A DNA stretch of 64,000 nucleotides from assembly GCA_018816555.1 (NCBI GenBank), contig JAHIVT010000086.1:36973-100972 (forward strand), given 5' to 3'. Position numbers and translations under genes: made by a program. The DNA comes from Pseudomonadota bacterium. Lineage in GTDB: Bacteria > Desulfobacterota > Desulfobulbia > Desulfobulbales > SURF-16. Below are positions 38,346 to 62,096 of this stretch, in pieces (within the stretch, counting starts at the first letter, position 1; every line of letters starts with the position of its first letter). The notes under the pieces are model-generated. The model ran no database searches and was not told the DNA's origin. It saw nothing but the letters and a program-made list of their open reading frames with translations.

Positions 38346-38386
38346 AAGCAAGCCCCTGTCATATGGCAGGGGCTTGCTTTTTTTTT
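38346..38386 (+). terminator. Intrinsic terminator
   Basis: AAGCAAGCCCCTG / CAGGGGCTTGCTT stem plus poly-T, between convergent genes. Confidence 0.85.
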
Positions 38387-39884
38387 ACGCATCGGCCTGC
38401 TGAGGGGTTTTGGTCGGCGCGGCAAAGAGACTTGCCAGGGCCTTGTCCATGGAAAAGCCGGCGGGAAAATTCTGCTGGTAGAGAGTTGTCGCCAGATTCC
38501 ACTCCTTTTTCACCGATGCCAGATCGCCCATTATCTGTTTCTTGAAGGAGGCGGCGTTCTTTTCCTCGGCAAATTCGCCGTAAAGCAGATAATCATTGCC
38601 CTTGCGGAAAAGCATCACCGAATCTGTCCCCTGCTCACTGCCCCATTCTGTGGTGGTTTTCAGCAGACTCTGGCCGAGCTCATCAAGGATCTGGTCAGCC
38701 ACCACATGGCCGATTTTCTGCTGAAATTCTCCGAAGGTGGGAATATCTATGAAAAAGAGGTCGTAGGGCATGGTGTTGTTTCGTAACAGTTGCGCATCGT
38801 CCAGAAAATAGAGATAACGATAATTGTAAAAGTCTGTCAGCGGTTCCCGGAAATAGGTTTTCCGGCGGAACACCTCGATGTCTTTCATGAAGCCGGCGGT
38901 CACCTGGGGTGGAGGAGCAATATCCTCCGGGATTTCCGGGGCTATCTTTTTCAGCACATTGACAATGTCCTGATCCAGTTGGCCGGCCTTTGCCTCTTTA
39001 TCCACAATGGCAAGGGCCTTGTCCCGTGACATGGGCTGTTTGTATGGTCTTCTTGCCATAAGAGACTCATAGGTGTCCGCCACGGCGACGATTCGTGAAA
39101 AAAGATCAATCTCATCGCCCTTGAGGCCTGCGGGATAACCGCTGCCGTCGAGACGTTCGTGGTGATTGAGGATAATGTCGGCTATCCGATCGTCCTGCAG
39201 GTGCCGGGCAAATATTTTGGCGCCGACCAAGGGATGATACTGCATGATGAAGCGATCCTGGGGATCGAAACGGCCCGGTTTTAACAGGACATCATCAGGA
39301 ATGGCGGTTTTGCCGATGTCATGGACCAGGCAGCCGAATTCAATGATTTTCAGATCATCGTCGCTTAATTTCATTTCCAGGCCGATAAGTCCGGCAATTT
39401 TGGCTACCTGGGCGGCATGTTCAAAGGTGTGCAGGTCCCGGTTAGCGATCATTTCCGCCATGATTTCCAGGATATCATGCAGCATTCTATCGCTTTGCTG
39501 GCGGATCTTTTCTTCCGCCGCACGCCGGACGCGAACCTCTTCGGCCAGCAGAATATTGTTTTCTTTCAGCTGATCCTCACCTGCCTTGATCTTGGCAATG
39601 GTGCTTCTGGTAAAAATGATGACCAGGAAAACAAAAATGGCGCCGCCGAATAAAATGAGCGAGACGAAGACCTGCCTCGGGGAAAAGGTATGTTCCCCGA
39701 GCAGCGGCAGAAAGGCGATATAGCCGAGGAGAAAGAGCGTCATGAGACAGAGGAGCGGAATCCAGTTGTTCTGCAGTTCAATGGGCAGGCTTTTGGTCAT
39801 TTTCCTGCCCAGGATGAGGGAGGCGGACATGAAGATGATGCCGAGAAGGATAAGAGCTGCCGATATGATTGTGGAAGTTGTCAT
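38385..39884 (-). CDS. 3-TM HD-GYP phosphodiesterase with degenerate C-terminal GGDEF-like domain
   Basis: 'HDIGK', 'HHERLDGSGYP', 'RPYK'; C-terminus 'EPLTDFYNYR...GHVVADQIL...FRKGNDY'. Confidence 0.88.
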   Translation of the reverse strand: MTTSTIISAALILLGIIFMSASLILGRKMTKSLPIELQNNWIPLLCLMTLFLLGYIAFLPLLGEHTFSPRQVFVSLILFGGAIFVFLVIIFTRSTIAKIKAGEDQLKENNILLAEEVRVRRAAEEKIRQQSDRMLHDILEIMAEMIANRDLHTFEHAAQVAKIAGLIGLEMKLSDDDLKIIEFGCLVHDIGKTAIPDDVLLKPGRFDPQDRFIMQYHPLVGAKIFARHLQDDRIADIILNHHERLDGSGYPAGLKGDEIDLFSRIVAVADTYESLMARRPYKQPMSRDKALAIVDKEAKAGQLDQDIVNVLKKIAPEIPEDIAPPPQVTAGFMKDIEVFRRKTYFREPLTDFYNYRYLYFLDDAQLLRNNTMPYDLFFIDIPTFGEFQQKIGHVVADQILDELGQSLLKTTTEWGSEQGTDSVMLFRKGNDYLLYGEFAEEKNAASFKKQIMGDLASVKKEWNLATTLYQQNFPAGFSMDKALASLFAAPTKTPQQADA

Positions 39885-48145: not shown

Positions 48146-48457
48146 ATGACGAGCAATTTGAACGATAATATGTCAGATGGCAGGCTTGCCCAGAGAATTT
48201 CTGCTGAAAAATTTGCTGAAAATTCTCCGATGTCACTGACCATCCGTAATGTGAGAATGGAAACAGTGGAGGCTACCCTGTTAAATATCAGCGAAACGGG
48301 TATGGCTGTCTTAAGCGATCATGAACTTGTCCTCGGACAGCTGGTAAGTATAGCGACTAACTTTAAAAATAAAATTCCTCATAAGGCCGTGGTCATGTGG
48401 TCATGCAAGGATGACAACCGCTATCGCGCCGGATTAAGGTTTGTCAGCTCCTTGTGA
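48146..48457 (+). CDS. Stand-alone PilZ-like domain protein
   Basis: 'RLAQR', 'NISETG', 'V.W', 'YRAGLRF'. Confidence 0.7.
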   Translation: MTSNLNDNMSDGRLAQRISAEKFAENSPMSLTIRNVRMETVEATLLNISETGMAVLSDHELVLGQLVSIATNFKNKIPHKAVVMWSCKDDNRYRAGLRFVSSL

Positions 48458-49824: not shown

Positions 49825-49903
49825 ACGTACCGTCCGTAAAGTCTTTAATTTACAGTTATTATTATAAGATCAACAACCTTCTTTGCTGCAAACAGGAGCC
49901 GGC

Positions 49904-52351
49904 ATGGCACAGGAAACTGATCAGAACATCTTTGTCATGTTCGACAGGCTGCGGGACAGTCTGAAGCAGATTATCTTCGATCAGGATAAGGCTATAGACG
50001 AGGTGGTGGATGCCTTCATCCATATGGCTTACAAACCGGTTGATACACCGCCCAAGGTGATTTTCACCTTCCTGGGACCTGCCTCGGTGGGCAAGAAGAG
50101 CCTTGCCCGCGCCCTGACCTCTCATCTTAAGGAGTATGCGGCTTTCAAGCAGTTTGACATGGAGCAGTTCACTGACCCTGAAAGCGGTGCGCAGCTGCTC
50201 GGCCAGAGAATGACCCCTGACGGTGTCCAGGATGGGGAGTTGACCGGTTTTATCAAGGATCATCCCCAGTCAATTATTCTCTTTGATTCCATTGAAAAAG
50301 CGGACAATCAACTGCAGCTGGCCCTTTTTAATCTGCTTACCCGCAGCGAGGAGGAGAGCGGCATCGACTGCAGCGGCGTTATCGTCATTTTTACCTCCAG
50401 CCTGGGCTGCGGATTTTTCAAGGACAGAAAATACCAGGAGGCATTCAAGGAAAACAAGCTGCGCGCCCAGGCTCTGGTCATGGACGCCCTTGCCAAGGAA
50501 AGAAAGGCGGTCTACGATACGGTCCAGAGTGCCATTGCCCCAAAGCTGCTGGCCGCCATGGCGCGCAATTTCATCATCCTGTTCAATTCCCTGAGTCTGG
50601 ATACCCTGGTGCGCATCGGCGGTGAATCATTGAGCGCTCATTCCCGGCAGTTTGCCGACGTCAGTGGAATGAAGGTCGAATATCATGATTTTGACCGGAT
50701 TGCCGCTTTGCTGACCCTGTCATTTTCTCCTGATATCAGCGTCAACAGGCTCAAACAGAAACTGCCGGATCTCGTTCTGGGCAGGGTCACCAGCTTTGTC
50801 CGTGACCAGAGGAAATATCCCGAGCATATCGTCTGCAGGATTTCCAAACAGGCCGATTCTTTTCTGGAGAAAATCTGCCAGGATAAAGAGACATTGCCGA
50901 CCAGGCTTTATAAGAAAAATGAAACAGTGGATATCTCCTGGAAAGAGACCCTGCGGGGCCAGAAGCTGACCTGCACCATTCACAAGGCGGAATTGAAGAG
51001 ACTGCCGCCGGCCAGTGAATTTTTCCGCGAGCTGCAGCCCATGGTGGAATTTTCCACCATGGGCTTTAAGGATATAGCCGGCAATAAAAGTACCAAGAAG
51101 AATCTTAAGCAGATCGTCAAGATTCTCAGGGAGCCGGGACTGCTGGAAAAATTCGGCATCGACATGCCCAAGGGCATGCTGCTCTATGGACCTTCCGGCG
51201 TGGGCAAGACCATGCTGGCCAAGGCCTTTGCCCGGGAGACGGAAAGACCTTTTGTCTATGTGTCCAGAAGCGACCTGTTTGATCCTGGCTATATCCGCAA
51301 TGCCTATGTCAAGGCCAGGGAATTTGCCCCGAGCCTCGTCTTTCTTGACGGCATTGACGTCAAGGGGCTGATTGAGGGGGTTTATACCTCCATGCCGGAT
51401 GACCAGTTGACCCTGGAGCTTGACGCCCTGTCCGGGGATCCCGAGGATTCCGTCTTCACCATCGCCACTGCCCAGAACAAGGCCGATGTCAGTCCCCGGC
51501 TCATTGCCCCCAACAGAATCGATATCTTTGTCGAGGTACCCGAGCTTGATCGGGACGCCCGGCGCTTTTTCATTGAAAAGATTCTTGAGAAACCAAACGA
51601 CGGCAAGATCAACGTTGAGAGGGTGATCCGGTATATCTCAGGCATGAGCGGCTATGATCTGCAGCGTATCGGCAAGGAGGCCTCTCTCTATGCCATCCGC
51701 AATGATCTTGACAGCATCACCGAAGATATCCTCATTGAGGAGATCAACATCATCAAGTACGGTTATAAGCTGGAGAAGAAACGCATCAGAAATCTTGAAC
51801 AGGATCTGAAAATCACCGCCTACCATGAGGCCGGGCACGCGGTGCTGTCCCATCTGCTGCTGCCGGACATCAAGATTGAACAGGTGACCATCGCACCGCG
51901 GCTGAAATCCATGGGATTCATCTCTTACAGCATGGAGGATTTCCCCGGCAACATCTCCAAGGATGAGGTCTTTGACAACATCTGCGTGCTGCTCGGCGGG
52001 CGCACGGCCAGCATCAGGAAGTTCGGCAGCAAGGGGATCGACACGGGTGCGGCAAACGATCTGGAGGTGGCCACCCATCAGGCCTATGCCGCTGTTGCCA
52101 GTCTGGGCATGGATGAGGAGATCGGCTATGTGCACACCGATACCCTTTCCCAGAATGTCAGTAAACAGATATACCTGGCCAAGGTTGCGGAACGGATCAG
52201 CCATTGGATGAAAGAGGCGAGTATCAAGGCCGAGACGCTGATTGAAAAGCACTGGGAAAAAGTGGAGCAGCTGGCCTCCATCCTTATCCGCCAGGAAATT
52301 GTCGACGGTGCCGAGTTGGAAAAGATCATGAAGGGGCTGAAAGAGTCCTAG
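49904..52351 (+). CDS. Soluble Clp-D2-like AAA + FtsH-like AAA + peptidase M41 fusion
   Basis: 'FLGPASVGK..FDMEQF..LFDSIEKA'; 'PKGMLLYGPSGVGKT'; 'TAYHEAGHA', 'GAANDL'; no TM; CAGGAG RBS before ATG 49904. Confidence 0.88.
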   Translation: MAQETDQNIFVMFDRLRDSLKQIIFDQDKAIDEVVDAFIHMAYKPVDTPPKVIFTFLGPASVGKKSLARALTSHLKEYAAFKQFDMEQFTDPESGAQLLGQRMTPDGVQDGELTGFIKDHPQSIILFDSIEKADNQLQLALFNLLTRSEEESGIDCSGVIVIFTSSLGCGFFKDRKYQEAFKENKLRAQALVMDALAKERKAVYDTVQSAIAPKLLAAMARNFIILFNSLSLDTLVRIGGESLSAHSRQFADVSGMKVEYHDFDRIAALLTLSFSPDISVNRLKQKLPDLVLGRVTSFVRDQRKYPEHIVCRISKQADSFLEKICQDKETLPTRLYKKNETVDISWKETLRGQKLTCTIHKAELKRLPPASEFFRELQPMVEFSTMGFKDIAGNKSTKKNLKQIVKILREPGLLEKFGIDMPKGMLLYGPSGVGKTMLAKAFARETERPFVYVSRSDLFDPGYIRNAYVKAREFAPSLVFLDGIDVKGLIEGVYTSMPDDQLTLELDALSGDPEDSVFTIATAQNKADVSPRLIAPNRIDIFVEVPELDRDARRFFIEKILEKPNDGKINVERVIRYISGMSGYDLQRIGKEASLYAIRNDLDSITEDILIEEINIIKYGYKLEKKRIRNLEQDLKITAYHEAGHAVLSHLLLPDIKIEQVTIAPRLKSMGFISYSMEDFPGNISKDEVFDNICVLLGGRTASIRKFGSKGIDTGAANDLEVATHQAYAAVASLGMDEEIGYVHTDTLSQNVSKQIYLAKVAERISHWMKEASIKAETLIEKHWEKVEQLASILIRQEIVDGAELEKIMKGLKES

Positions 52352-52597
52352 CGGAATTGCCGGCAGGCAGATGTGTCGCCATTTTGCCGACACCATAAAA
52401 ATGCAAGTAATTTATTATACTGCTGATATTTATTTCCCTTTACTGGTTGTAAAAGGGGAGGTAATATCAAAAAAAATATCCTGGGAGGGAGAAAAAAATC
52501 CCTTTGCAGCGTTAAAGGAATAGGCAAGCGGTTCATATCCATCCTGTCAGAGATACTGTAACCCTTTATCAACAACCAATAATTGAGGAAGAATTCA

Positions 52598-52861
52598 ATG
52601 AAACTGATGAAGAAGACTGTTGCTTTTGTCCTTATGTCCTTACTGGCCACCGGTATATGCGCCTGTGATCAGAAAAAAGAAAAAGCTGAAGTGACACCTG
52701 CCCCGGCAGTTGAGCACCAGGCCGCCCCGGCCATGGAGCAGCAGGCTCCTGCCGCCACAGAACCGGCACCGGCCGAAGGGACACAGCCAATGGATGTTCC
52801 TTCACCCGACAGTGCAGAGCAGCCAGCTCCTGCAACCGAAGCGGCACCCAGCCAGCATTAA
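52598..52861 (+). CDS. Small Pro/Ala/Glu-rich lipoprotein
   Basis: Signal peptide ending 'ICAC', low-complexity APA repeats. Confidence 0.65.
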   Translation: MKLMKKTVAFVLMSLLATGICACDQKKEKAEVTPAPAVEHQAAPAMEQQAPAATEPAPAEGTQPMDVPSPDSAEQPAPATEAAPSQH

Positions 52862-52954: not shown

Positions 52955-54043
52955 TTAAGCCTCATCCTCTTCTTCCGGGCTGTTTTCCTCATCAATCCGG
53001 CGGATGCCGTCCATCAGCAGTTTCATGAATTCGCCGATCTCCGCCGCTTTCATTTCCTGGGGTGAGAGGCCGGCGTTGAATTTGAAGCGTCCGCCTTTTC
53101 TTTCGGCAATGATGCGGTAAATCGCCTCCTGGTTTTTTTCTCCTGCATAGCTGGCGTTGATGATGCACCCCTCCCTGAAGGAAATGCGTGCCTCTCCATC
53201 CGGCAGCTCAATGGTCAGTACCCCTGTTTTGCCGTTCATGTGAAAGAGTTGGAATAATTCCACCTGGGGCATTTCCGCCAGTGAGCCGCTCATGGCATAG
53301 GCGACCTCCTGGAGACGGGCGGCATTGCTTTTGGTGAGACGGTCCGAGAGAAGGCGCAGGAAATAGATATAAAGGGAGGGATTCTTGTTCAGCAGGTTTT
53401 TCATTTCCTGGCCGTCGATGCAGAGCACTTCGGTGGGATCAATGGTTCTTACCGTAGCGCAGACCGCCTGGGAGGTGAGTTGACTCATTTCGCCCAGAAC
53501 CTCCCCTCGGCCAAGAACGGCAATGCGCTGATCGCCGTCAAGCACAGCCACCTTGCCGGATAAGATGATGACAACATTGCCCGCTTCCTCTCCCTTACGA
53601 AATATGTCCGATCCCGGGCTGAATTTTTTGTAGGTGAAGCAGGGAAGAATTCTGGCCAGATTTTTTTTCTCAATGACCTGAAAGAGACCGATAGTACCCA
53701 GTCCGTCAACCAGTCTGTGCGGCACATTTATTTCAGTGCCCAGGATCTCGGACAAAGAGGTGGCTGCTTCGTCTTCCGTGGCGATTGTATTGTAATTCAT
53801 TCGGAACTTGATCAGACCGGAGCAGCCTGAGCAGCTGAAGAGTTTTTCCGGGTCATGCCCGTCTTTATCCTGGGAGAGAAGGGCAAATAACAGTTCGGTC
53901 ATTTCCCTGGCCAGGATAAGGCAGACAGGTTTATCCTGCGGAGGCAGCAGGGCCTTGTCCGTCAATTCCAGTCGGTCATCCAGTTCATAGAGAGGGCATT
54001 TTTTATTCTCCACGATCTGGAAGATTGACCTGAAAGAGCTCAT
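52955..54043 (-). CDS. Cys-rich N-terminal domain + cNMP-binding domain + DUF4388 (PatA-N-like)
   Basis: 'CPLY..PVC..CSGC'; 'GEVLGEMS..ATV'; 'MSGSLAEM...ELFQLF....KTGVL'. Confidence 0.82.
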   Translation of the reverse strand: MSSFRSIFQIVENKKCPLYELDDRLELTDKALLPPQDKPVCLILAREMTELLFALLSQDKDGHDPEKLFSCSGCSGLIKFRMNYNTIATEDEAATSLSEILGTEINVPHRLVDGLGTIGLFQVIEKKNLARILPCFTYKKFSPGSDIFRKGEEAGNVVIILSGKVAVLDGDQRIAVLGRGEVLGEMSQLTSQAVCATVRTIDPTEVLCIDGQEMKNLLNKNPSLYIYFLRLLSDRLTKSNAARLQEVAYAMSGSLAEMPQVELFQLFHMNGKTGVLTIELPDGEARISFREGCIINASYAGEKNQEAIYRIIAERKGGRFKFNAGLSPQEMKAAEIGEFMKLLMDGIRRIDEENSPEEEDEA

Positions 54044-54288
54044 GGTTCGTTACCTTTTTTCTGTCGTGAGTTGGTCGAGCCTTCATTTGGGACCATAACC
54101 GAGAACGCAAACGCTGTCCTGTTTTCAGCTGCAGCCATTCAGTTAATTCTTGTTCAAGTCTTTAACTTTAGCTATTCTTAAGAGTAAAGTCGAGAGCATG
54201 GTTGTCAGGAGACAATTATGCTGCCATAATCCTCATTGTACCAACAAAAAAACAACAGATTTTTTATCTTTTTGAGATCCTATCCGCC

Positions 54289-56382
54289 ATGTCCGTATCC
54301 AACAGCCAACTCGCCGATGAATATGAGGAAATAAAGAGAAGATTTTCCGCCTCTCCTTATATCCGGATAACTGCAACCAGCGGAAATCCGCCGGACAATT
54401 ATGAGGTTACCTACCATGTCAAGGGAATAAGCCAGGTGACGGACGGCCGGGCAGATATTAATGACAGCCACCGGGTGAGTATTGTTCTCCCCTTTGGTTA
54501 TCCCCATTTTCCGCCGAATTGTAAACCGCTTACCGCAATTTTTCATCCTGATTTTGACCCGGATGCCATCTGTATCGGGGATTTCTGGAATTCCTCCCGC
54601 TCCCTGCCTGAACTTATTGTGCATATCGGCAGGTTGATTTCCTATCAAACCTATAGCCGAGAGGATGTCTTCAATCGTGAAGCCCTTGACTGGACCCGGG
54701 CCAATGGTGATTTGCTGCCGCTTGACCAGGCCGATTTCAGGGTCCAGACGACGGAGGCACAACCTGAAGTTGTTACGGCTGACACGCAGCAAGGTCTTAT
54801 TCCCGCAGAATTATTGCCGGCAAGCGGTGACGCGCCGATGCCGCCGGCAATCGCACCTCAAGCAGGGGAAGGGCGTGAAAAAACAAAAGATGGAAGAGGT
54901 AAGGCTGCTTCTTCTGCCGGCAAAATCACAGGCAACAAAAACAGGAAACCCTTGCTGTTTGCAGTCTGCGGGGTATTGTTGCTTGCCGTTGTTGCCTGCG
55001 CCCTGCTCGTGCTTGACCTGCGCAATTATGCAGGAGCGGTGCAGAAGTGGGCCGGGGTGGCGCCCCTGGTCAGTCAAAACAGATTCGCCGAGGCGGATAC
55101 CCAGGTGAAAGATGTCCAGGCCCTGCTGGATAAGATCCGTTTTCTCAAAAAAGGGGAAAAACAGGCACTGCTGCAGGAAGTCAGAAAGCTGGCCGACTCC
55201 CAGGAATTTAAAGAGGGTCTGCAGGGCAAGATACTGGTGAACGGCCGCTACCTCACGATCCGGCAACAGCAGGATATCAAGGCAGTGAGCGAATTGCTCG
55301 CCAAAGCGCAGTCCCTGGCGGATGCCGGCAAGCGGCAGAATGCTGGAGAGGCCTACTCTTTGGCTGCAGAAAAAACTACGGGCCTTGGCGATCTTGCTCC
55401 CGTACCCCTGGACAAGGTCGAAGAGCTGGCACAGAAGAGTCGCCTGCAGGGTCAGATGGAGGAGGGCAATCTGTTCAGGTCCCGGCAGAAGTGGGATCAG
55501 GCGCAAGGTAATTACCAGGAGGCGATGAAGATACTGGCCGGCATGAAGAAGGATGAACAGTGGGAGGCCACCAGAAGGGAGATCCAGACCCTCATGACCG
55601 AGATGGCTTTTTCTTCAGCTGTGGAACACGGTAATCAATTCTTTGCCGATAAACAATGGTCTCAGGCCGCCGACAGTTATGAGAACGCCTTGAAGATGAT
55701 CGATAATCAGGGTGGAGAACCGGCCCCGGCAGTGAAGAAAATCCAAGGGCAGCGTGATGTGGCCAGATTCAATTTTTATTATGAGGCAGGACTGAAAGAT
55801 TTCAGTGGGGGTCAATGGGATGCCGCCATTGCCAATCTGGAAAGAGGTGAGGGACTGCTGGCCGCTGCCAGGGCAGCCGGCGGGGCTCGTGAGATCAGCC
55901 GGACAACCATTAAGGGGAAAATTCTCAGTGCCACGATCAATCGTGGAGAGGGCGCGGTGGCTGCATATCTGGCAGAGGAGAAATACAGCCAGGCAGTCAA
56001 GGTGCTGCAAGCAAGTATCAACGCCATTGACCACAATCAGCTTGGGTCAGAGAAAGAATTTGCCGCAGCCCGAAAGTCTGCGGCTGAAAGAATCAGCAAG
56101 TATCGGTTTCTGGGTGATATTCAGCAGAAGATTGCCTACCTGCTCAGCAGGTATGAAACGATTTTCAAGGATTTTTTCCCCTCAGCCGCCCGGTCAAAAC
56201 TGTCGGAACCGCAAATCACCTTTGTCAGACAGGAAGGAACCCTTCTCATCTTCAAGATGCAATGCCTGGAAGAGAACAGGCGGCAGAAATTTACCCTGGA
56301 GATGAATTATCAGTATGACGGCAAGTCAGGGCAATGGAGCCCCACACTCCATGCGGATGGCGCAGGCAGCGCGGGCAAGTAA
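54289..56382 (+). CDS. Ubiquitin-conjugating (E2/UBC)-like domain fused to a TM helix and TPR-like repeats
   Basis: 'YPHFPP....TAIFHPDFDPDAICIGDFW...L.ELI..I...I.YQ.Y....FNREA..W'; TM 'LLFAVCGVLLLAVVACALLVL'; repeats 'G..F....W..A...Y..A'; ATG 54289. Confidence 0.75.
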   Translation: MSVSNSQLADEYEEIKRRFSASPYIRITATSGNPPDNYEVTYHVKGISQVTDGRADINDSHRVSIVLPFGYPHFPPNCKPLTAIFHPDFDPDAICIGDFWNSSRSLPELIVHIGRLISYQTYSREDVFNREALDWTRANGDLLPLDQADFRVQTTEAQPEVVTADTQQGLIPAELLPASGDAPMPPAIAPQAGEGREKTKDGRGKAASSAGKITGNKNRKPLLFAVCGVLLLAVVACALLVLDLRNYAGAVQKWAGVAPLVSQNRFAEADTQVKDVQALLDKIRFLKKGEKQALLQEVRKLADSQEFKEGLQGKILVNGRYLTIRQQQDIKAVSELLAKAQSLADAGKRQNAGEAYSLAAEKTTGLGDLAPVPLDKVEELAQKSRLQGQMEEGNLFRSRQKWDQAQGNYQEAMKILAGMKKDEQWEATRREIQTLMTEMAFSSAVEHGNQFFADKQWSQAADSYENALKMIDNQGGEPAPAVKKIQGQRDVARFNFYYEAGLKDFSGGQWDAAIANLERGEGLLAAARAAGGAREISRTTIKGKILSATINRGEGAVAAYLAEEKYSQAVKVLQASINAIDHNQLGSEKEFAAARKSAAERISKYRFLGDIQQKIAYLLSRYETIFKDFFPSAARSKLSEPQITFVRQEGTLLIFKMQCLEENRRQKFTLEMNYQYDGKSGQWSPTLHADGAGSAGK

Positions 56383-56442: not shown

Positions 56443-57309
56443 TCAGCTGTCCGCGCCGATGACCACAACCCTGTCGCGACCGTCATTTTTTGCCTGATAG
56501 AGGGCCTTGTCGGCATTTTTGATCAGGGTATGCAGGTCAACAGCTGTCGTCTGGCCATGGTTGAAGCCTGCCACCCCTATGCTCACGGTGATTGTGATGG
56601 CAGGATGGCAGGATTCTTCATCCTGGGTGGCCATTTCCTCCATGGCGATTTTGTGGCGTAAACGCTCAGCCAGAACAGCCGCGTGCGTTGCGGTGGTGTT
56701 CGGCATGATGACAAGTATCTCTTCCCCGCCGTATCGCGCCACAATGTCAATATCCCGCACAGTTGATAAGATCAACTTGGCGAGGTTTTTTAATACAAGG
56801 TCCCCTATCTGGTGCCCGCAGGTGTCGTTGACCATTTTAAAGCGGTCAATGTCCAGCAGCAGGACGGCCAGAGGGAGATTATATCTTTGCGACCGCAGAA
56901 ACTCTTCCTTGAGGCGGCGATCCAGATACCGGCGGTTAAAAATACCCATCAGGGAGTCGGAGATGTTTTCCTGCTCCAGGATATTGATCCGCTGCAGATC
57001 AATGACTGTTTTAAAAGACAGTAAGCAGACCAGCAGTACAAAAACGGCGCCGCCCAGAAACACTCCCGGCACGAGAAGCTCGGAAAAGGAACTGCAGTTC
57101 CTCCAGTTGACAAATGCGTAAGTAATGTAACCGGCGATAAAAAAAAGGATCATCAGGGTCAGGACATTCCACAGAGAGCGGGCGGACCCTGGAGGAAGCT
57201 CCTTGGTCAGTTTCCAGACCGGAAAGAGGGCGATGGTCAGAATGGCCGTCCCCGAGAACAGTAGTCCGTTCATGAGGTAAAATGTGACATTATCCATTGA
57301 TACGTGCAA
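56443..57309 (-). CDS. 3-TM diguanylate cyclase
   Basis: 'DIDRFKMVND', I-site 'RDID', 'RYGGEEI', 'ADKALYQAK'. Confidence 0.9.
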   Translation of the reverse strand: MHVSMDNVTFYLMNGLLFSGTAILTIALFPVWKLTKELPPGSARSLWNVLTLMILFFIAGYITYAFVNWRNCSSFSELLVPGVFLGGAVFVLLVCLLSFKTVIDLQRINILEQENISDSLMGIFNRRYLDRRLKEEFLRSQRYNLPLAVLLLDIDRFKMVNDTCGHQIGDLVLKNLAKLILSTVRDIDIVARYGGEEILVIMPNTTATHAAVLAERLRHKIAMEEMATQDEESCHPAITITVSIGVAGFNHGQTTAVDLHTLIKNADKALYQAKNDGRDRVVVIGADS

Positions 57310-57984: not shown

Positions 57985-59655
57985 ATGAATAACATGTCAA
58001 TCAGAATGAAAATTTCTTGCATTATGATTCTCATCGGAGTTGTGACCGCCTGCTTTTTTGCTTTTTTCATTTACCAGCGCAACATCAACGAAGCGCATGC
58101 TGATGCCCGGGTTAACGCCGATAATCTGCTGGCAAGAACCGTGCAGATGTTCATGGTGTCAACCACCAAATTTCATGAAGACTTTCAGCGGACCCAAGGC
58201 AATCCCGACGAAAGGCAAAAGATCCTGGATGATTGGAACCGAACGATCTTTGCCGTGGATCAGGCGGTTATTCATGACCATGGAGCGGATAAGCCGCGGG
58301 TGCGACTGATTGGCGATAAGCAGGTTTTTCAGTATGCCCCGCTGGGTGGCGACAATACGAAAATAGAGATACCCTTTGAAGCGGAAGCAGGCAAGTTCCT
58401 GGCGAATGGCGACAGTAAATTCGAAAAGATTGAGAACGGTTTTCTGCGGGTGGCCATTCCGCTGTGGAGTGATGTATTTATCGGATGTGCTGAATGCCAT
58501 ATTGCCAAGGTTGAAAATGATCAGGCCGATATGAACCGGCATATTCTGCTGGGGACCTTGAATGCCTATGTCCCTCTGCAGCAGATGGTGGCCCAGGCAA
58601 AAATTAATGCGGTCGTCATCATTTCGCTGTTCATGCTTGCCGTATTTCTGCTGATCGGCATTGTTTATCTGTTTGTCAGCCGCTCCTTGGTGAAGCCGGT
58701 TGTGCTTGAAATCAACAGTCTCAATGACAGTGCCGAGCAGGTAACCGTTTCCTCCAGGCAATTAAATTCCGCCAGCCTTGCCATGGCAGAGGGTGCTTCG
58801 GAACAGGCGGCATCCATCGAGGAGACATCCGCATCCCTGGAAGAAATGTCCTCCATGACCAGACGCAACGCGGATAATGCCCATCAGGCTGACAGTTTTA
58901 CCCGGGAAGCAAGCCAACTGGTGGACAAGGCCAATGATTCCATGGGCAAACTTAATGATTCCATGGAAGAAATTTCCAAGGCCAGCGCTGAAACATCGAA
59001 AATTATCAAAACCATCGACGAGATAGCGTTCCAGACAAACCTCCTGGCTCTCAATGCTGCCGTTGAGGCCGCCCGGGCCGGGGAGGCCGGCGCGGGGTTT
59101 GCCGTGGTTGCCGACGAGGTGCGCAACCTCGCCCTGCGAGCCGCCGAGGCAGCAAGGGACACAGCCGGGCTGATCGAGGCGACCGTGAACAAGGTGAAGG
59201 ATGGAAAAAATCTGGTCGGCGAAACAAACAGTTCTTTTGCCGAGGTGTCCATCAGTGTCGGCAAGGTCAGCCAGCTTGTGGCTGAAATCGCTTCCGCGTC
59301 CGGTGAGCAGGCCAAAGGGATTGATCAGATCAACTCGGCTGTGACTGAAATGGACAAGGTTATCCAGCGGAATGCGGCCAATGCGGAGCAATGCGCCGCG
59401 ACATCAGAGCAGATGGAACTGCAGTCCGGTAAGATGAAGCGTGTAGTGCGACATTTGCTGGGTTTATTTAAAGGGGGTGACCGTGACAGCGACTCCGTTG
59501 CCGCGCCCCCCGTGACAAAATCAGCAGCAAAAAAACAATCTGCCGCTCCGCGGGCTCAGGTGACGCCAAAAGGACAGAAGTTCATTGCTGCGCCCAAAAA
59601 AATGGCTTTCAAGAAAGATAATCCTGAACATGACAATGATTTTGAAGATTTTTAA
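57985..59655 (+). CDS. Methyl-accepting chemotaxis protein with periplasmic c-type heme motif
   Basis: TM-sensor (CAECH)-TM; '[34 protein letters not shown]'; C-terminal 'DFEDF' pentapeptide. Confidence 0.93.
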
Positions 59656-59717: not shown

Positions 59718-59758
59718 AGGCCATCTTTAAAAATCAGGATGATTTTTAAAGATGGCCT
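59718..59758. terminator. Perfect 19-bp inverted repeat between convergent genes
   Basis: AGGCCATCTTTAAAAATCA-GGA-TGATTTTTAAAGATGGCCT, abutting the rSAM stop codon. Confidence 0.6.
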
Positions 59759-62096
59759 ACATATAACTGATTTGCCGGTCAAGCAGGTCATCCATCCTCT
59801 CTAGGTAGATTTCCAGGGGCTGCTGTCTCAGTGAGGCAAGACCTACCCGCAGATCCAGGGCCTGGATATCATGGGAGAGAGCGGGAGAGCCGACAATTTT
59901 TTCCGCCTCGTCATAGCGTTTCAGCTTGATCAGGGCCTTGGCGCAATTGGTGGCCGCTTCCGTACTGCTGTCTGCAATGGTGCTGAGGAGCTCATACGCC
60001 TTTTCAGGCCAGCTGTCGGCCAGCAGTATTCGACCCGCGTGTTCAAGGGTTGATCCGTTCCGGGGCAGAAGGTCAAGCAGGGGTTCCGCCTGTTGTCGGA
60101 AGCCCAGTTTCAGGTAGAAATTGATCAGGCTGAGAAAATCGGTCATCTCCTGTATGAGTTTCTGCGGCAGGGAGTCCTTCAACACCATGTAATACATGGT
60201 TTCATTCTGTTTGCGCAGCCCTTCCAGATCATTGAAGCGGTAAATATTCTGCGGCGGTTTATCCAGCAGCGCGTCCATATGCTCCATGATAACAGGCTCC
60301 ATCACCTGGTGGAGAAAGACCTGGAACATGACGCTCCGCCCGGCGAGTTCACTGTGTCCGTAATCAGCAGGAAACCTGACTGGAAACTGGCTCACCCTAC
60401 CCGCCTTCATGCCCAGCAGCCCGGCCTCGAAATCAGGAAGAAGTTTGCCGCTGCCCAGCACGGCATCCTGATAGTAGGCCTCAGTGGCCGGTACCACCTG
60501 ACCGTTCAGGATACCCTTACAGTCGTAAATTACCCTCCAGCAGGGGGCGGCAATGCCGCGGCGTTTGAAACGAAAGCCGGTAAACGGTCCGGCCAGGAAG
60601 TGTCGGACCTGCGCATCATGGAGAAATTTTTCTTTGAGCCGGACCATGCACTGATGGGCGGCGGGAAATTCCTCCAGGGTCAGATAAATCTGCGCCAGCA
60701 TGAGCAGGGCCTCGGGACGGCAGGACAGCGCCTCGAAGTTTGCGGTGATGAAGCCCGCCACCTCAAAAAGGTTGGTGCCGGAGGCAATATTTTCCTGGAA
60801 ATCCTGGCGATTCAGGCGCCACAGCATGCTCATCCAGCGGATCTCATCCTTGCTCATGGCATCGGTGGCGAAATCGCGGCAAATGCTCTGGTAGGCTGGT
60901 TTGGTAACGGCCAGCGGCTTGATGCCATGGGCCTCGGGGTCGTCAAGAATGGGGATACCGAAGAAGAGATGCAGCTGCTGGGAAATGGAATTGCCGCTGA
61001 CGCTTACCTTGTTGGCCTTGACAAAATCCAGGGTTTTCTGGGCATGGGAGAATGATTCCCCGGGCAGGCCGAAGAGGGTGAAGAGCTCGACATTGATGCC
61101 GGCTTGCTGGACTTCTCCGATGACTGTGGCGAGTTTTGCAGGATTGAGTCCCTTATTGATTTTGCCCAGCACGTTGTGGTCCGCCGATTCTAGTCCGAAG
61201 GCAAGGGTATGGGCACCCGCTTTTTTCAGCAGAGCGAGCAGCTCGTCATCAATGAGATTGTATCTGGTCTGGCACCAGAAGGTGATGGGCGGGCATTCCG
61301 TAATGATTCTCTGCAGGAGCGCAACGAGCCGTGTGCGGGAAAAGGCAAAGTTGGGGTCGGCAAACCAGAAGTCTCTTATGCCCCTGGCCTGCAGATATTT
61401 GATTTCGGCAATGACCCGGTCAAGGGAATGAAATCTGACCTTTTTATTGCTGGCGCGGGTGGTGTAACAGAACGTGCAGGGTGACGTGCAGCCCCGGGAG
61501 GTAAGGAGGATCACGCGGCTCTTCGAGGCAGTGTCGATGATCCCTTCCAGGTAGGGGGAAGGCAGGAGGTCAAGGTCTTCCACCACCTCAGTCTGCGGGG
61601 TGTCAACTGCTTTTCCCTGCTCCAGGTAGCAGATGCCAGGCACCTCCGAGAGCGGTCTGCCCGTGTCCAGCGCCCGGCCAAGGGCGGGCAGGACGGTTTC
61701 TCCTTCCCCGCGGCAGAGGATGTCAACATCCTTCATCTGAGCCAGGGCCTCGCAGGGCATGAAGGTGATCTGGGGGCCGCCCAGGATTATCAGGATTTCG
61801 GGCCGGAGCTGTTTGGCATGCCGAGCCCAGACCAGTACCCTGTTGATGTTTTCTTCGTAAACCGAAAAACCGAGCACATCGGGTTTTTCTGATGCAAGAG
61901 TGTCGCGGAAGAGTTTCGGCGGCAAAGGGCTGCCCTTGTAATCGCCGAGAATGGTGCCGCTGTAACCGCATTTTCTGAGAGTGGCCAGGGCGTAAGCCTG
62001 GGAGATGGGAATGGTATCCGGGGAGTCGATGGTGGACCATTCATTGACATGTATGAAAAGAAAGTTCGTCCTGTCTGTCTGTCTGTTTCGATTCAT
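59757..62096 (-). CDS. B12-binding radical SAM protein with FKBP (trigger factor-like) and TPR-like C-terminal domains
   Basis: 'GFSVY..GGPQIT..GEGE'; 'TSRGCTSPCTFC'; 'GLES'; 'LGSGKLLPDFEAGLLGMKAG....V.FPADY....LAG....F.V'. Confidence 0.88.
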   Translation of the reverse strand: MNRNRQTDRTNFLFIHVNEWSTIDSPDTIPISQAYALATLRKCGYSGTILGDYKGSPLPPKLFRDTLASEKPDVLGFSVYEENINRVLVWARHAKQLRPEILIILGGPQITFMPCEALAQMKDVDILCRGEGETVLPALGRALDTGRPLSEVPGICYLEQGKAVDTPQTEVVEDLDLLPSPYLEGIIDTASKSRVILLTSRGCTSPCTFCYTTRASNKKVRFHSLDRVIAEIKYLQARGIRDFWFADPNFAFSRTRLVALLQRIITECPPITFWCQTRYNLIDDELLALLKKAGAHTLAFGLESADHNVLGKINKGLNPAKLATVIGEVQQAGINVELFTLFGLPGESFSHAQKTLDFVKANKVSVSGNSISQQLHLFFGIPILDDPEAHGIKPLAVTKPAYQSICRDFATDAMSKDEIRWMSMLWRLNRQDFQENIASGTNLFEVAGFITANFEALSCRPEALLMLAQIYLTLEEFPAAHQCMVRLKEKFLHDAQVRHFLAGPFTGFRFKRRGIAAPCWRVIYDCKGILNGQVVPATEAYYQDAVLGSGKLLPDFEAGLLGMKAGRVSQFPVRFPADYGHSELAGRSVMFQVFLHQVMEPVIMEHMDALLDKPPQNIYRFNDLEGLRKQNETMYYMVLKDSLPQKLIQEMTDFLSLINFYLKLGFRQQAEPLLDLLPRNGSTLEHAGRILLADSWPEKAYELLSTIADSSTEAATNCAKALIKLKRYDEAEKIVGSPALSHDIQALDLRVGLASLRQQPLEIYLERMDDLLDRQISYM

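Follow-up and report, generated by a model that had tools for sequence, protein, structure and literature searches.

Here, we describe a gene for an E2-fold (ubiquitin-conjugating enzyme fold) protein with a transmembrane segment, located at positions 54289 to 56382 (plus strand) of a 64,000-nucleotide stretch of contig JAHIVT010000086.1 (assembly GCA_018816555.1; this whole stretch is hereafter the window) from a groundwater sulfur bacterium of the order Desulfobulbales. The product (P0001, 697 amino acids, aa) appears to be an orphaned pseudo-E2 that is reused as a membrane-tethered, non-catalytic docking or signalling scaffold, most probably coupled to the product of a divergently transcribed neighbour with a PATAN domain, a reading to which we give a probability of about 0.5. 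A docking or signalling module is probable because, in this family, the partner genes of a ubiquitin system are gone and the active site is partly lost. An earlier sequence-only reading of this DNA had proposed an envelope sensor whose output is a conjugation or Cys-transfer reaction, with an E2-fold binding module as fallback; motif decay and missing partner genes speak for the fallback. It had missed both the conserved divergent partner and the descent from operonic prokaryotic E2s. The features of the gene are as follows.

54289..56382, plus strand: whole gene P0001, 697 aa, with E2-fold domain, linker, transmembrane helix, helical repeats and beta domain.
54289..54738, plus strand: UBC/E2-fold domain, aa 1-150, probably cytoplasmic (model, VIA-align, Foldseek, profile against the PDB).
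54520..54522, plus strand: codon of Cys78 (PPNCKP), a second conserved Cys (homologue alignment).
54544..54552, plus strand: HPD motif, aa 86-88, where E2s have HPN (family alignment).
54571..54573, plus strand: codon of Cys95, aligned with the catalytic Cys of E2s (profile against PDB E2s).
54739..54948, plus strand: Pro/Ala-rich disordered linker with a Lys/Arg-rich end, aa 151-220 (predicted local distance difference test score, pLDDT, below 50 at aa 154-221).
54949..55020, plus strand: one transmembrane helix, aa 221-244 (highest Kyte-Doolittle value, 3.07, at aa 223-241; modelled helix from aa 222).
55057..56175, plus strand: TPR-like helical-repeat solenoid, aa 257-629, predicted periplasmic (helix hairpins in the model).
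56197..56340, plus strand: small C-terminal beta-sheet domain, aa 637-684 (strands in the model; invariant C659 and W683).

Taken alone, P0001 matches the Pfam E2 family UQ_con (PF00179) with E 8.6e-4 and 19.4 bits, under the 27-bit cut-off, and matches E2s of the PDB at E 0.004 or worse. A family profile (A3) built from 85 orthologous E2-like domains retrieves 261 sequences from the PDB at E<=1; E2s alone fill the best 60 places, with UBE2C on top (9.8e-9), and the catalytic Cys of these enzymes falls on the Cys95 column. The domain was modelled with pLDDT 92.7 and a predicted template-modelling score (pTM) of 0.90, and when the model was aligned to 48,161 chains with VIA-align the top 28 were catalytic E2s at Z 9.1-13.1 (best chain 1zdn: Z 13.1, root-mean-square deviation 3.1, 133 residues aligned), followed by UEV, UFC1, FANCL and RWD domains at Z 7-8.8. 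Foldseek gave 302 PDB matches at E<=1e-3. The N-terminal helix, four-stranded sheet and C-terminal helices of a UBC core are found in the model and its structure matches, and the modelled N-terminal domain is a genuine UBC/E2 fold, its resemblance being far beyond chance, as had been proposed for the first ~150 aa. Also borne out are the motif string, which runs YPHFPP, TAIFHPD, AIC (Cys95), W100 and N129-x-E-A, and the position of the Cys codon within it.

Catalysis by E2s normally requires the Asn of HPN, which P0001 has replaced by Asp. Conservation of this site was surveyed in 201 genomes of the window's order (families coded f, subgroups coded g), in which all 85 copies of the gene, from 83 genomes, were aligned to the family hidden Markov model. 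Positions 86-88 read HPD in 81 copies, HPA in 2 and HPE in 2, and HPD also in all 41 proteins of a homologue set. Position 95 is Cys in 39 copies, Arg in 27, Lys in 11, Tyr, Ala and Pro in 2 each, and Gly and His in 1 each, leaving 46/85 family members without Cys. By lineage, the residue is Cys in 30 copies and Tyr in 1 in f17; Cys in the 8 copies of f1 subgroups g1, g2 and g7, Lys in the 11 copies of g4, g5 and g11, and Arg in the single copy of g6; and Arg in 26, Ala in 2, Gly in 1 and His in 1 of the f16 copies, with Cys in 0/30. Cys78 is Cys in 39/41 homologues and lost in 30/30 f16 copies and, since Cys95 is gone there as well, f16 orthologues are without any conserved Cys in the domain. 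Cys is found in 64/121 HPD-type cluster representatives, and a quick maximum-likelihood tree, with HPN-type outgroups as its root, has at least 4 switches between Cys and non-Cys at the site. Of the two features proposed for checking, HPD is therefore conserved and the Cys, though present in P0001, is not conserved family-wide. A function conserved throughout the family cannot depend on a Cys thioester or a ubiquitin-like cascade.

Genes of a ubiquitin-like system are missing as well. No E1 (activating enzyme), JAB or second E2 was found on the window's contig, genome-wide matches lying on other contigs, and no ubiquitin-like protein (Ubl), E1, JAB or RING gene stands beside the E2-like gene in 21 loci examined, in agreement with the absence of E1, Ubl and JAB originally noted around it. 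The window's own genome (97% complete) has one ThiF above cut-off, beside ThiG and a radical-SAM gene in a thiamine operon, no Prok-JAB above cut-off, and no match to UQ_con except at the window's E2-like gene. In the order sample, JAB (PF01398) and YukD were each found in 0/201 genomes, and Prok-RING_1 gave 9 weak matches, none above cut-off. The conjugation or Cys-transfer output thus finds a Cys in under half of the copies, HPD for HPN, and no dedicated E1, Ubl, JAB or RING gene in the own genome or the 201; an unconserved Cys with no E1 or Ubl in carrier genomes, the result by which the sequence-only reading said it would stand or fall, is largely what the sequences give. Presence of ThiF was also tried as a discriminator and rejected, since it occurs in 199/201 genomes of the order, so that carriers and non-carriers are not separable. 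Two sub-threshold Prok-JAB-like matches in the own genome (G000:C158:59-232 and C92:59-253), both in 109-aa frames at the same offset from the contig starts, are probably a repeated element at assembly breaks.

By profile search and tree, the window's E2 domain has its origin in the E2 that prokaryotic Ubl-E1-JAB-FHA-RING-E2 operons encode. An exhaustive profile search yielded 2185 cluster representatives at E<=1e-3, of which 329 had E<=1e-30; the lower part of the top 150 matches includes shorter proteins with HPN and Cys and with C-terminal Zn ribbons, FHA or TPR domains, and the nearest relatives outside the family exceed the UQ_con cut-off. Querying with one protein of this sister family returned 866 proteins, whose sources include Planctomycetota, Hydrogenedentes and Sumerlaeota, with HPN and Cys in 115/115 alignable proteins and with Cys79, the equivalent of Cys78, invariant (alignment A4). 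In the tree, a single branch connects the window family (ingroup) with the sister E2s (outgroup). From 425 sister loci in species-representative genomes, those kept with a length of 8 kb or more (65) were analysed, and the E2 open reading frame was recognised in 50. Where the upstream sequence reached 5.5 kb or more (38 loci), an E1 cluster (35), an FHA cluster (35) and a JAB cluster (30) lie on the same strand. Going by the Pfam names of three loci (L139, L119 and L147), the operons comprise a trypsin-like protease, a YukD-like Ubl, a ThiF E1, JAB, FHA, Prok-RING_1 membrane proteins, GYF_2, DUF2752 and, as last gene, the E2. Many of the loci come from related Acidobacteriota, and the gene order is also seen in Brocadiaceae, Planctomycetota, Verrucomicrobiota, Riflebacteria and Sumerlaeota. 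In the accessible text of PMC4197634, related operons of Actinobacteria, Planctomycetes and Acidobacteria are attributed to Burroughs et al. 2011, and in that of PMC8382908, Planctomycetes E2s are attributed to Arcas et al. 2013.

These operonic E2s are the closest sequence relatives of the window family, share with it a shortened HPx-to-Cys spacing and the second Cys, and in some members (P0179, P0184) also bear TPR-like and transmembrane extensions. They differ in keeping HPN and Cys without exception and in passing the UQ_con cut-off, whereas the window family has HPD, a variable Cys, a transmembrane helix between E2 domain and repeats, and pairing with a PATAN gene, to which partner-like matches occur in just 1 of the 65 sister loci. 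The complete Ubl-E1-JAB-RING operons of L117 and L119 already include long E2s (542-549 aa), and P0179, which like L117 is from a Sumerlaeota metagenome-assembled genome (MAG), has a Zn ribbon, TPR-like helices and C-terminal transmembrane segments; such long sister E2s could be a precursor of the Desulfobulbales architecture.

When open reading frames were clustered across 21 loci, the divergent upstream gene was the sole consistently linked neighbour of the E2-like gene, and it is upstream, divergent and adjacent in 64/85 copies, with gaps of 78-750 bp. In the window, this partner and the region that separates it from the E2-like gene are laid out as follows.

52955..54043, minus strand: divergent partner P0042, 362 aa, with 4-Cys, cyclic-nucleotide (cNMP)-binding and PATAN/DUF4388 domains (Pfam and conserved pairing).
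53774..54043, minus strand: N-terminal 4-Cys domain, aa 1-90 (C16, C41, C71 and C74 invariant in 42/42, alignment A2).
53381..53629, minus strand: cNMP-binding domain, aa 139-221 (Pfam cNMP_binding 1.5e-17).
52985..53290, minus strand: PATAN domain (DUF4388, PF14332), aa 252-353 (Pfam DUF4388 7.1e-21).
54044..54288, between the genes: intergenic region of 245 bp with promoter-like sites on both strands.

Partners come in long forms of ~326-388 aa with the cNMP domain (f17 and f1 subgroups g1, g2, g6 and g7) and short forms of ~201-228 aa without it (f16, f1 subgroups g4, g5 and g11, and f7). The 4-Cys domain occurs in 98/201 genomes of the order sample, usually as 2-4 paralogues, and is present in 81/83 carriers of the E2-like gene versus 17/118 non-carriers; it matches no Pfam or NCBIfam family and has no usable match in the Atlas. 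A partner profile searched against the PDB gave 254 matches at E<=1, and every one of the best 60 lies within the cNMP-binding region. The cNMP-binding-like domain (aa 139-221) seems to be without the Arg that belongs to a phosphate-binding cassette (GEMSQLTSQAVCATV in the window's partner), and its ligand may therefore not be cyclic AMP or cyclic GMP. The partner ends in an acidic, variable tail in which no Gly is conserved.

The two proteins may bind each other. A complex prediction for aa 1-221 of the E2-like protein with the partner scored 0.48 (graded 'weak support'), the best of 3 controls scoring 0.00, with at least 43% of contacts shared between runs and a partner pLDDT of at least 75. 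In calibration, that mark was reached by 116/157 solved complexes and 2/215 mismatched pairs, but a score of 0.60 or less occurred in only 18/157 solved complexes.

According to the available part of 10.1101/2021.06.11.447907, DUF4388 is the PATAN domain, and in PatA-type regulators of Synechocystis it sits at the inner membrane and has PilB1 and the PilC N-terminus as binding partners. The window's partner resembles known PATAN regulators (PatA-type PixE and PixG, and SgnC of Myxococcus) in carrying PF14332 and is unlike them in having no REC domain, in its novel 4-Cys domain with or without a cNMP domain, and in its pairing with an E2-fold membrane protein. In other bacteria, motor proteins of type IV pili are the targets of PATAN domains, and a link of the pair to pili or polarity is conceivable by analogy.

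The four Cys of the partner enter into a rival account of the pair, in which they, together with Cys78 and Cys95, would respond to redox state in these anaerobes or hold a metal or Fe-S centre, the Arg and Lys lineages being fixed in one signalling state. In favour of such a thiol or metal switch, E2 domains of the Cys clades have two Cys conserved and the family-less N-domain of the partner has four that are invariant, and Cys-type E2s go with a long partner in 32 rows and non-Cys E2s with a short one in 29, with 2 exceptions (n=63). This co-variation was nevertheless rejected as evidence, as it rests on 1-2 independent tree pairs (sign test p = 1) and the link between Cys state and partner form may for that reason be shared ancestry; in addition, searches of Pfam, NCBIfam and PDB profiles matched no metal-binding family. 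We regard the switch as improbable, and any metal or Fe-S role of the 4-Cys domain is conjectured from its Cys pattern.

The pseudo-E2 reading is the simplest account and would connect these findings in the following way. An operonic E2 would have been orphaned in three families of the order (the named homologues include MAGs of Desulfurivibrio, Desulfobulbaceae and Desulfocapsaceae), its operon partners being lost, HPN changing to HPD and the catalytic Cys becoming dispensable, while the E2 domain was fused to a transmembrane helix and a periplasmic TPR-like solenoid. The E2 fold would then act as a docking surface at the membrane, non-catalytic like a pseudo-E2 or UEV, and would couple a ligand of the periplasmic repeats to a cytoplasmic regulator, most probably the 4-Cys/(cNMP-binding)/PATAN protein. 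Support for the reading also comes from the retention of the gene in its carriers and from the E2 domain, which is better conserved than any other part of the protein.

Several observations weigh against this reading. The window's own protein retains both Cys95 and Cys78, and the Cys-keeping clades hold the Cys in 39/42 copies at 51% mean pairwise identity, which puts it in the top 35 of 148 columns; the Cys is hence not free to vary within these clades, and some Cys-dependent role there is plausible. No other stretch is as well conserved as the one around the former active site, and the fold is nearer to catalytic E2s (Z 9-13) than to UEV and RWD domains (Z 7-8.8). The complex score has only the grade 'weak', and no type IV pilus gene was seen among the loci examined. 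The partner was not found in the fetched DNA of 21/85 copies, among them every one of the 3 g55 and 3 g64 genomes, and a relaxed search of these 21 loci still gave none, with some of the genomes (G175 and G074) having a strong copy on another contig. Finally, the available text of 10.1101/2022.05.25.493364 reports in E2-CBASS an E2 that works without E1, a precedent for E1-free E2 chemistry.

Some of these observations favour an active E2, the account preferred in the sequence-only reading, in which Cys95 would carry a linked intermediate in the Cys-keeping lineages, charged by a housekeeping ThiF/MoeB-type E1 or without any E1, and the domain would act on a substrate, for instance the PATAN protein, by modifying or processing it upon a periplasmic signal. 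The presence and retention of Cys95, a fold nearest to catalytic E2s, a sister family of operonic E2s and the E1-free precedent all agree with this account. Opposed to it are Asp for the Asn of HPN in nearly all copies, whole clades with Arg or Lys in which orthologues are still conserved, the failure to find JAB, Ubl and RING in the 201 genomes, the placement of the own genome's sole ThiF in the thiamine operon, and a partner C-terminus that is variable, acidic and without conserved Gly. We consider an active E2 unlikely, and retain it because the window copy is of the Cys type and E1-less chemistry is known from E2-CBASS. Its more specific form is a long shot: in the Cys-keeping lineages, including the window's genus, the membrane-tethered E2 domain would continue to carry out covalent chemistry at Cys95 without an E1 (a thioester or acyl transfer, or processing of the peptidase-like kind reported for E2-CBASS), with the 4-Cys/cNMP/PATAN regulator as substrate and under the control of the periplasmic repeats. 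If true, it would mean a transmembrane signalling pathway with a ubiquitin-free E2 reaction as output, and would make the Arg and Lys lineages natural 'locked' variants.

The remainder of the protein bears out the proposed layout of Pro/Ala linker, Lys-rich stretch and one transmembrane segment, with a hydrophobic segment present exactly once in 41/41 homologues. The full-length AlphaFold2 model has a mean pLDDT of 83.5. With no signal peptide and with 4 Lys plus Arg among the 15 residues on the N side of the segment and 2 on the C side, an N-in/C-out, single-pass inner-membrane protein is the natural topology to expect. The ATG at 54289, which opens the reading frame where originally placed, is the start common to 41/41 homologues, and a longer alternative frame begins with a TTG at 54202. 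Consensus matching alone marks promoter-like sites on the plus strand at 54202-54230 (TTGTCA-17-CATAAT with TG) and on the minus strand at 54244-54215, and we take ATG 54289 as the correct start because all homologues share it and the TTG lies inside the promoter-like site.

The repeats predicted from sequence are present as helical hairpins; they span ~370 aa, with Pfam TPR_11 as the single near-threshold TPR match (E 4.9e-6; 26.6 bits versus a 26.8-bit cut-off), other TPR matches being weak. By Foldseek, the region matches Hop, LGN/Pins, BamD and P58IPK at low TM-score, and given these likenesses and the one Pfam match it is rightly called TPR-like. The C-terminal beta domain is without a match in Pfam and NCBIfam, and its Atlas matches are limited to weak look-alikes of small alpha+beta type (NTF2-like TcaA and DUF3298 among them). 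The solenoid might itself be the working part, organising an envelope or secretion complex as BamD-like TPR proteins do, with the E2 fold as no more than a stable cytoplasmic cap. The likeness to BamD, Hop and LGN, the invariant residues of the beta domain and the position of the f16/f17 locus between KpsF-like (SIS+CBS) and SecDF genes are in keeping with such an envelope scaffold. Yet conservation across homologues is highest in the E2 domain and lower in the repeats, and distant homologues align in the E2 domain alone (20-28% of the query); total length ranges from 579 to 913 aa, with the repeat region as the variable part, and conservation of the flanking housekeeping genes does not extend to f1. 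An envelope scaffold is quite unlikely in our judgement.

The distribution is that of a lineage gene. Among the 41 homologues, for which automatic annotations include 'ubiquitin-protein ligase' and 'E2 family protein', the named ones are from Desulfurivibrio, Desulfobulbaceae, Desulfocapsaceae, Desulfofustis and generic delta-/Thermodesulfobacteriota MAGs, with one labelled Pseudomonadota. Carriers make up 83/201 genomes of the order sample, with one copy in 81 and two in 2 of them and with internal stops in 0/85 copies. By family, they are 19/32 in f1, 30/32 in f16, 31/32 in f17, 1/16 in f7 and 1/3 in f10, and the gene was not found in the remaining 12 families of the sample (e.g. f5 0/32, f6 0/19). 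To judge from this pattern, it is a vertically inherited, single-copy lineage gene. In the three main families (f1, f16 and f17), 80/96 sampled genomes carry it, the window's own genome not counted, and its role therefore likely belongs to basic cell biology there. In a sample of 201 genomes of the phylum, the only match outside the order is in family f44 (2/2), where the E2-like proteins (L206) have open frames of 1061-1066 aa, HPN kept and Asp in the Cys column; they would represent a further E2 derivative without the Cys, of independent origin. The second copies in two f17 g51 genomes (L095 and L096) have open frames of 553-565 aa, HPE, Pro at the Cys position and no adjacent partner; on the tree they group with f16, which points to a transfer or to an ancient duplication.

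Among known systems, eukaryotic E2s (UBE2S, UBE2C, UBC12, UbcH5 and Ube2K) share the UBC fold over aa 1-144 (Z 11-13) and align at the Cys column, but at 15-21% identity, and the window protein differs in its HPD, its membrane anchor and the absence of a ubiquitin system. The UEVs (Mms2, Tsg101 and Vps37A; Z 7.1-8.8) and AKTIP/Fts (Z 11.6) offer the parallel of an E2 fold without thioester chemistry, as would hold for the 46 family members without Cys, yet there is no specific sequence relation, the window protein keeps its Cys, and there is no ubiquitin to bind. Bacterial defence E2s (CBASS Cap2, E2-CBASS, Bil and Bub) are likewise bacterial E2-fold proteins, one of them acting without E1, as the available E2-CBASS text has it. 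A defence-system identity (CBASS, Bil or Bub) was rejected: there is no PADLOC match at E<=0.01 and no CD-NTase, E1 or JAB nearby, and the gene behaves as a vertically inherited single copy and not as part of an island. In line with the sequence-only reading, literature searches found no description of the architecture, Burroughs 2011 and Arcas 2013 lying outside their reach, and it is not mentioned in the accessible portions of Iyer 2006 (PMC1779556), Grau-Bove 2015 (PMC4327156) and PMC8567305.

The family offers a natural case of a bacterial E2 becoming a pseudo-enzyme, with one orthologue carrying Cys, Arg or Lys across sister lineages. Because its closest relatives are still part of full Ubl-E1-E2-RING-JAB systems, it provides a comparative series for the role of the E2 fold after loss of ubiquitin, and it opens a route towards the function of the poorly understood PATAN domain and the new 4-Cys domain in sulfur-cycling Desulfobulbales.

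Around the pair, the window holds an FtsH-like AAA protease, the cNMP/PATAN protein, a GGDEF protein and a methyl-accepting chemotaxis protein (MCP) as neighbours of the E2-like gene. The protease (49883-52351, plus strand; 822 aa) carries two AAA domains, of which the extra, N-terminal one is ClpA/B-D2-like, followed by Peptidase_M41 with HExxH at aa 647, and it has no clear transmembrane segment (maximum Kyte-Doolittle 1.65). A functional link to it was rejected, its placement being conserved just within the genus (3 loci). Between the protease and partner genes lies a 92-aa open reading frame (52583-52861, plus strand) with a lipoprotein-like signal and a Pro/Ala-rich tail, kept in same-genus loci and without a Pfam match. 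A second paralogue of the 4-Cys/cNMP/PATAN type (372 aa; G000:C136:24161-25279, plus strand) is found in the same genome with no E2-like neighbour, preceded by three genes of 769, 136 and 292 aa. Second-messenger and taxis genes surround the pair, namely HD-GYP-like HD_5 plus GGDEF (38385-39884), PilZ (48146-48457), GGDEF (56443-57309) and MCP (57985-59655). At 59757-62096 (minus strand), a 779-aa fusion of B12-binding, radical SAM, FKBP-type peptidyl-prolyl isomerase and TPR domains is kept in same-genus loci.

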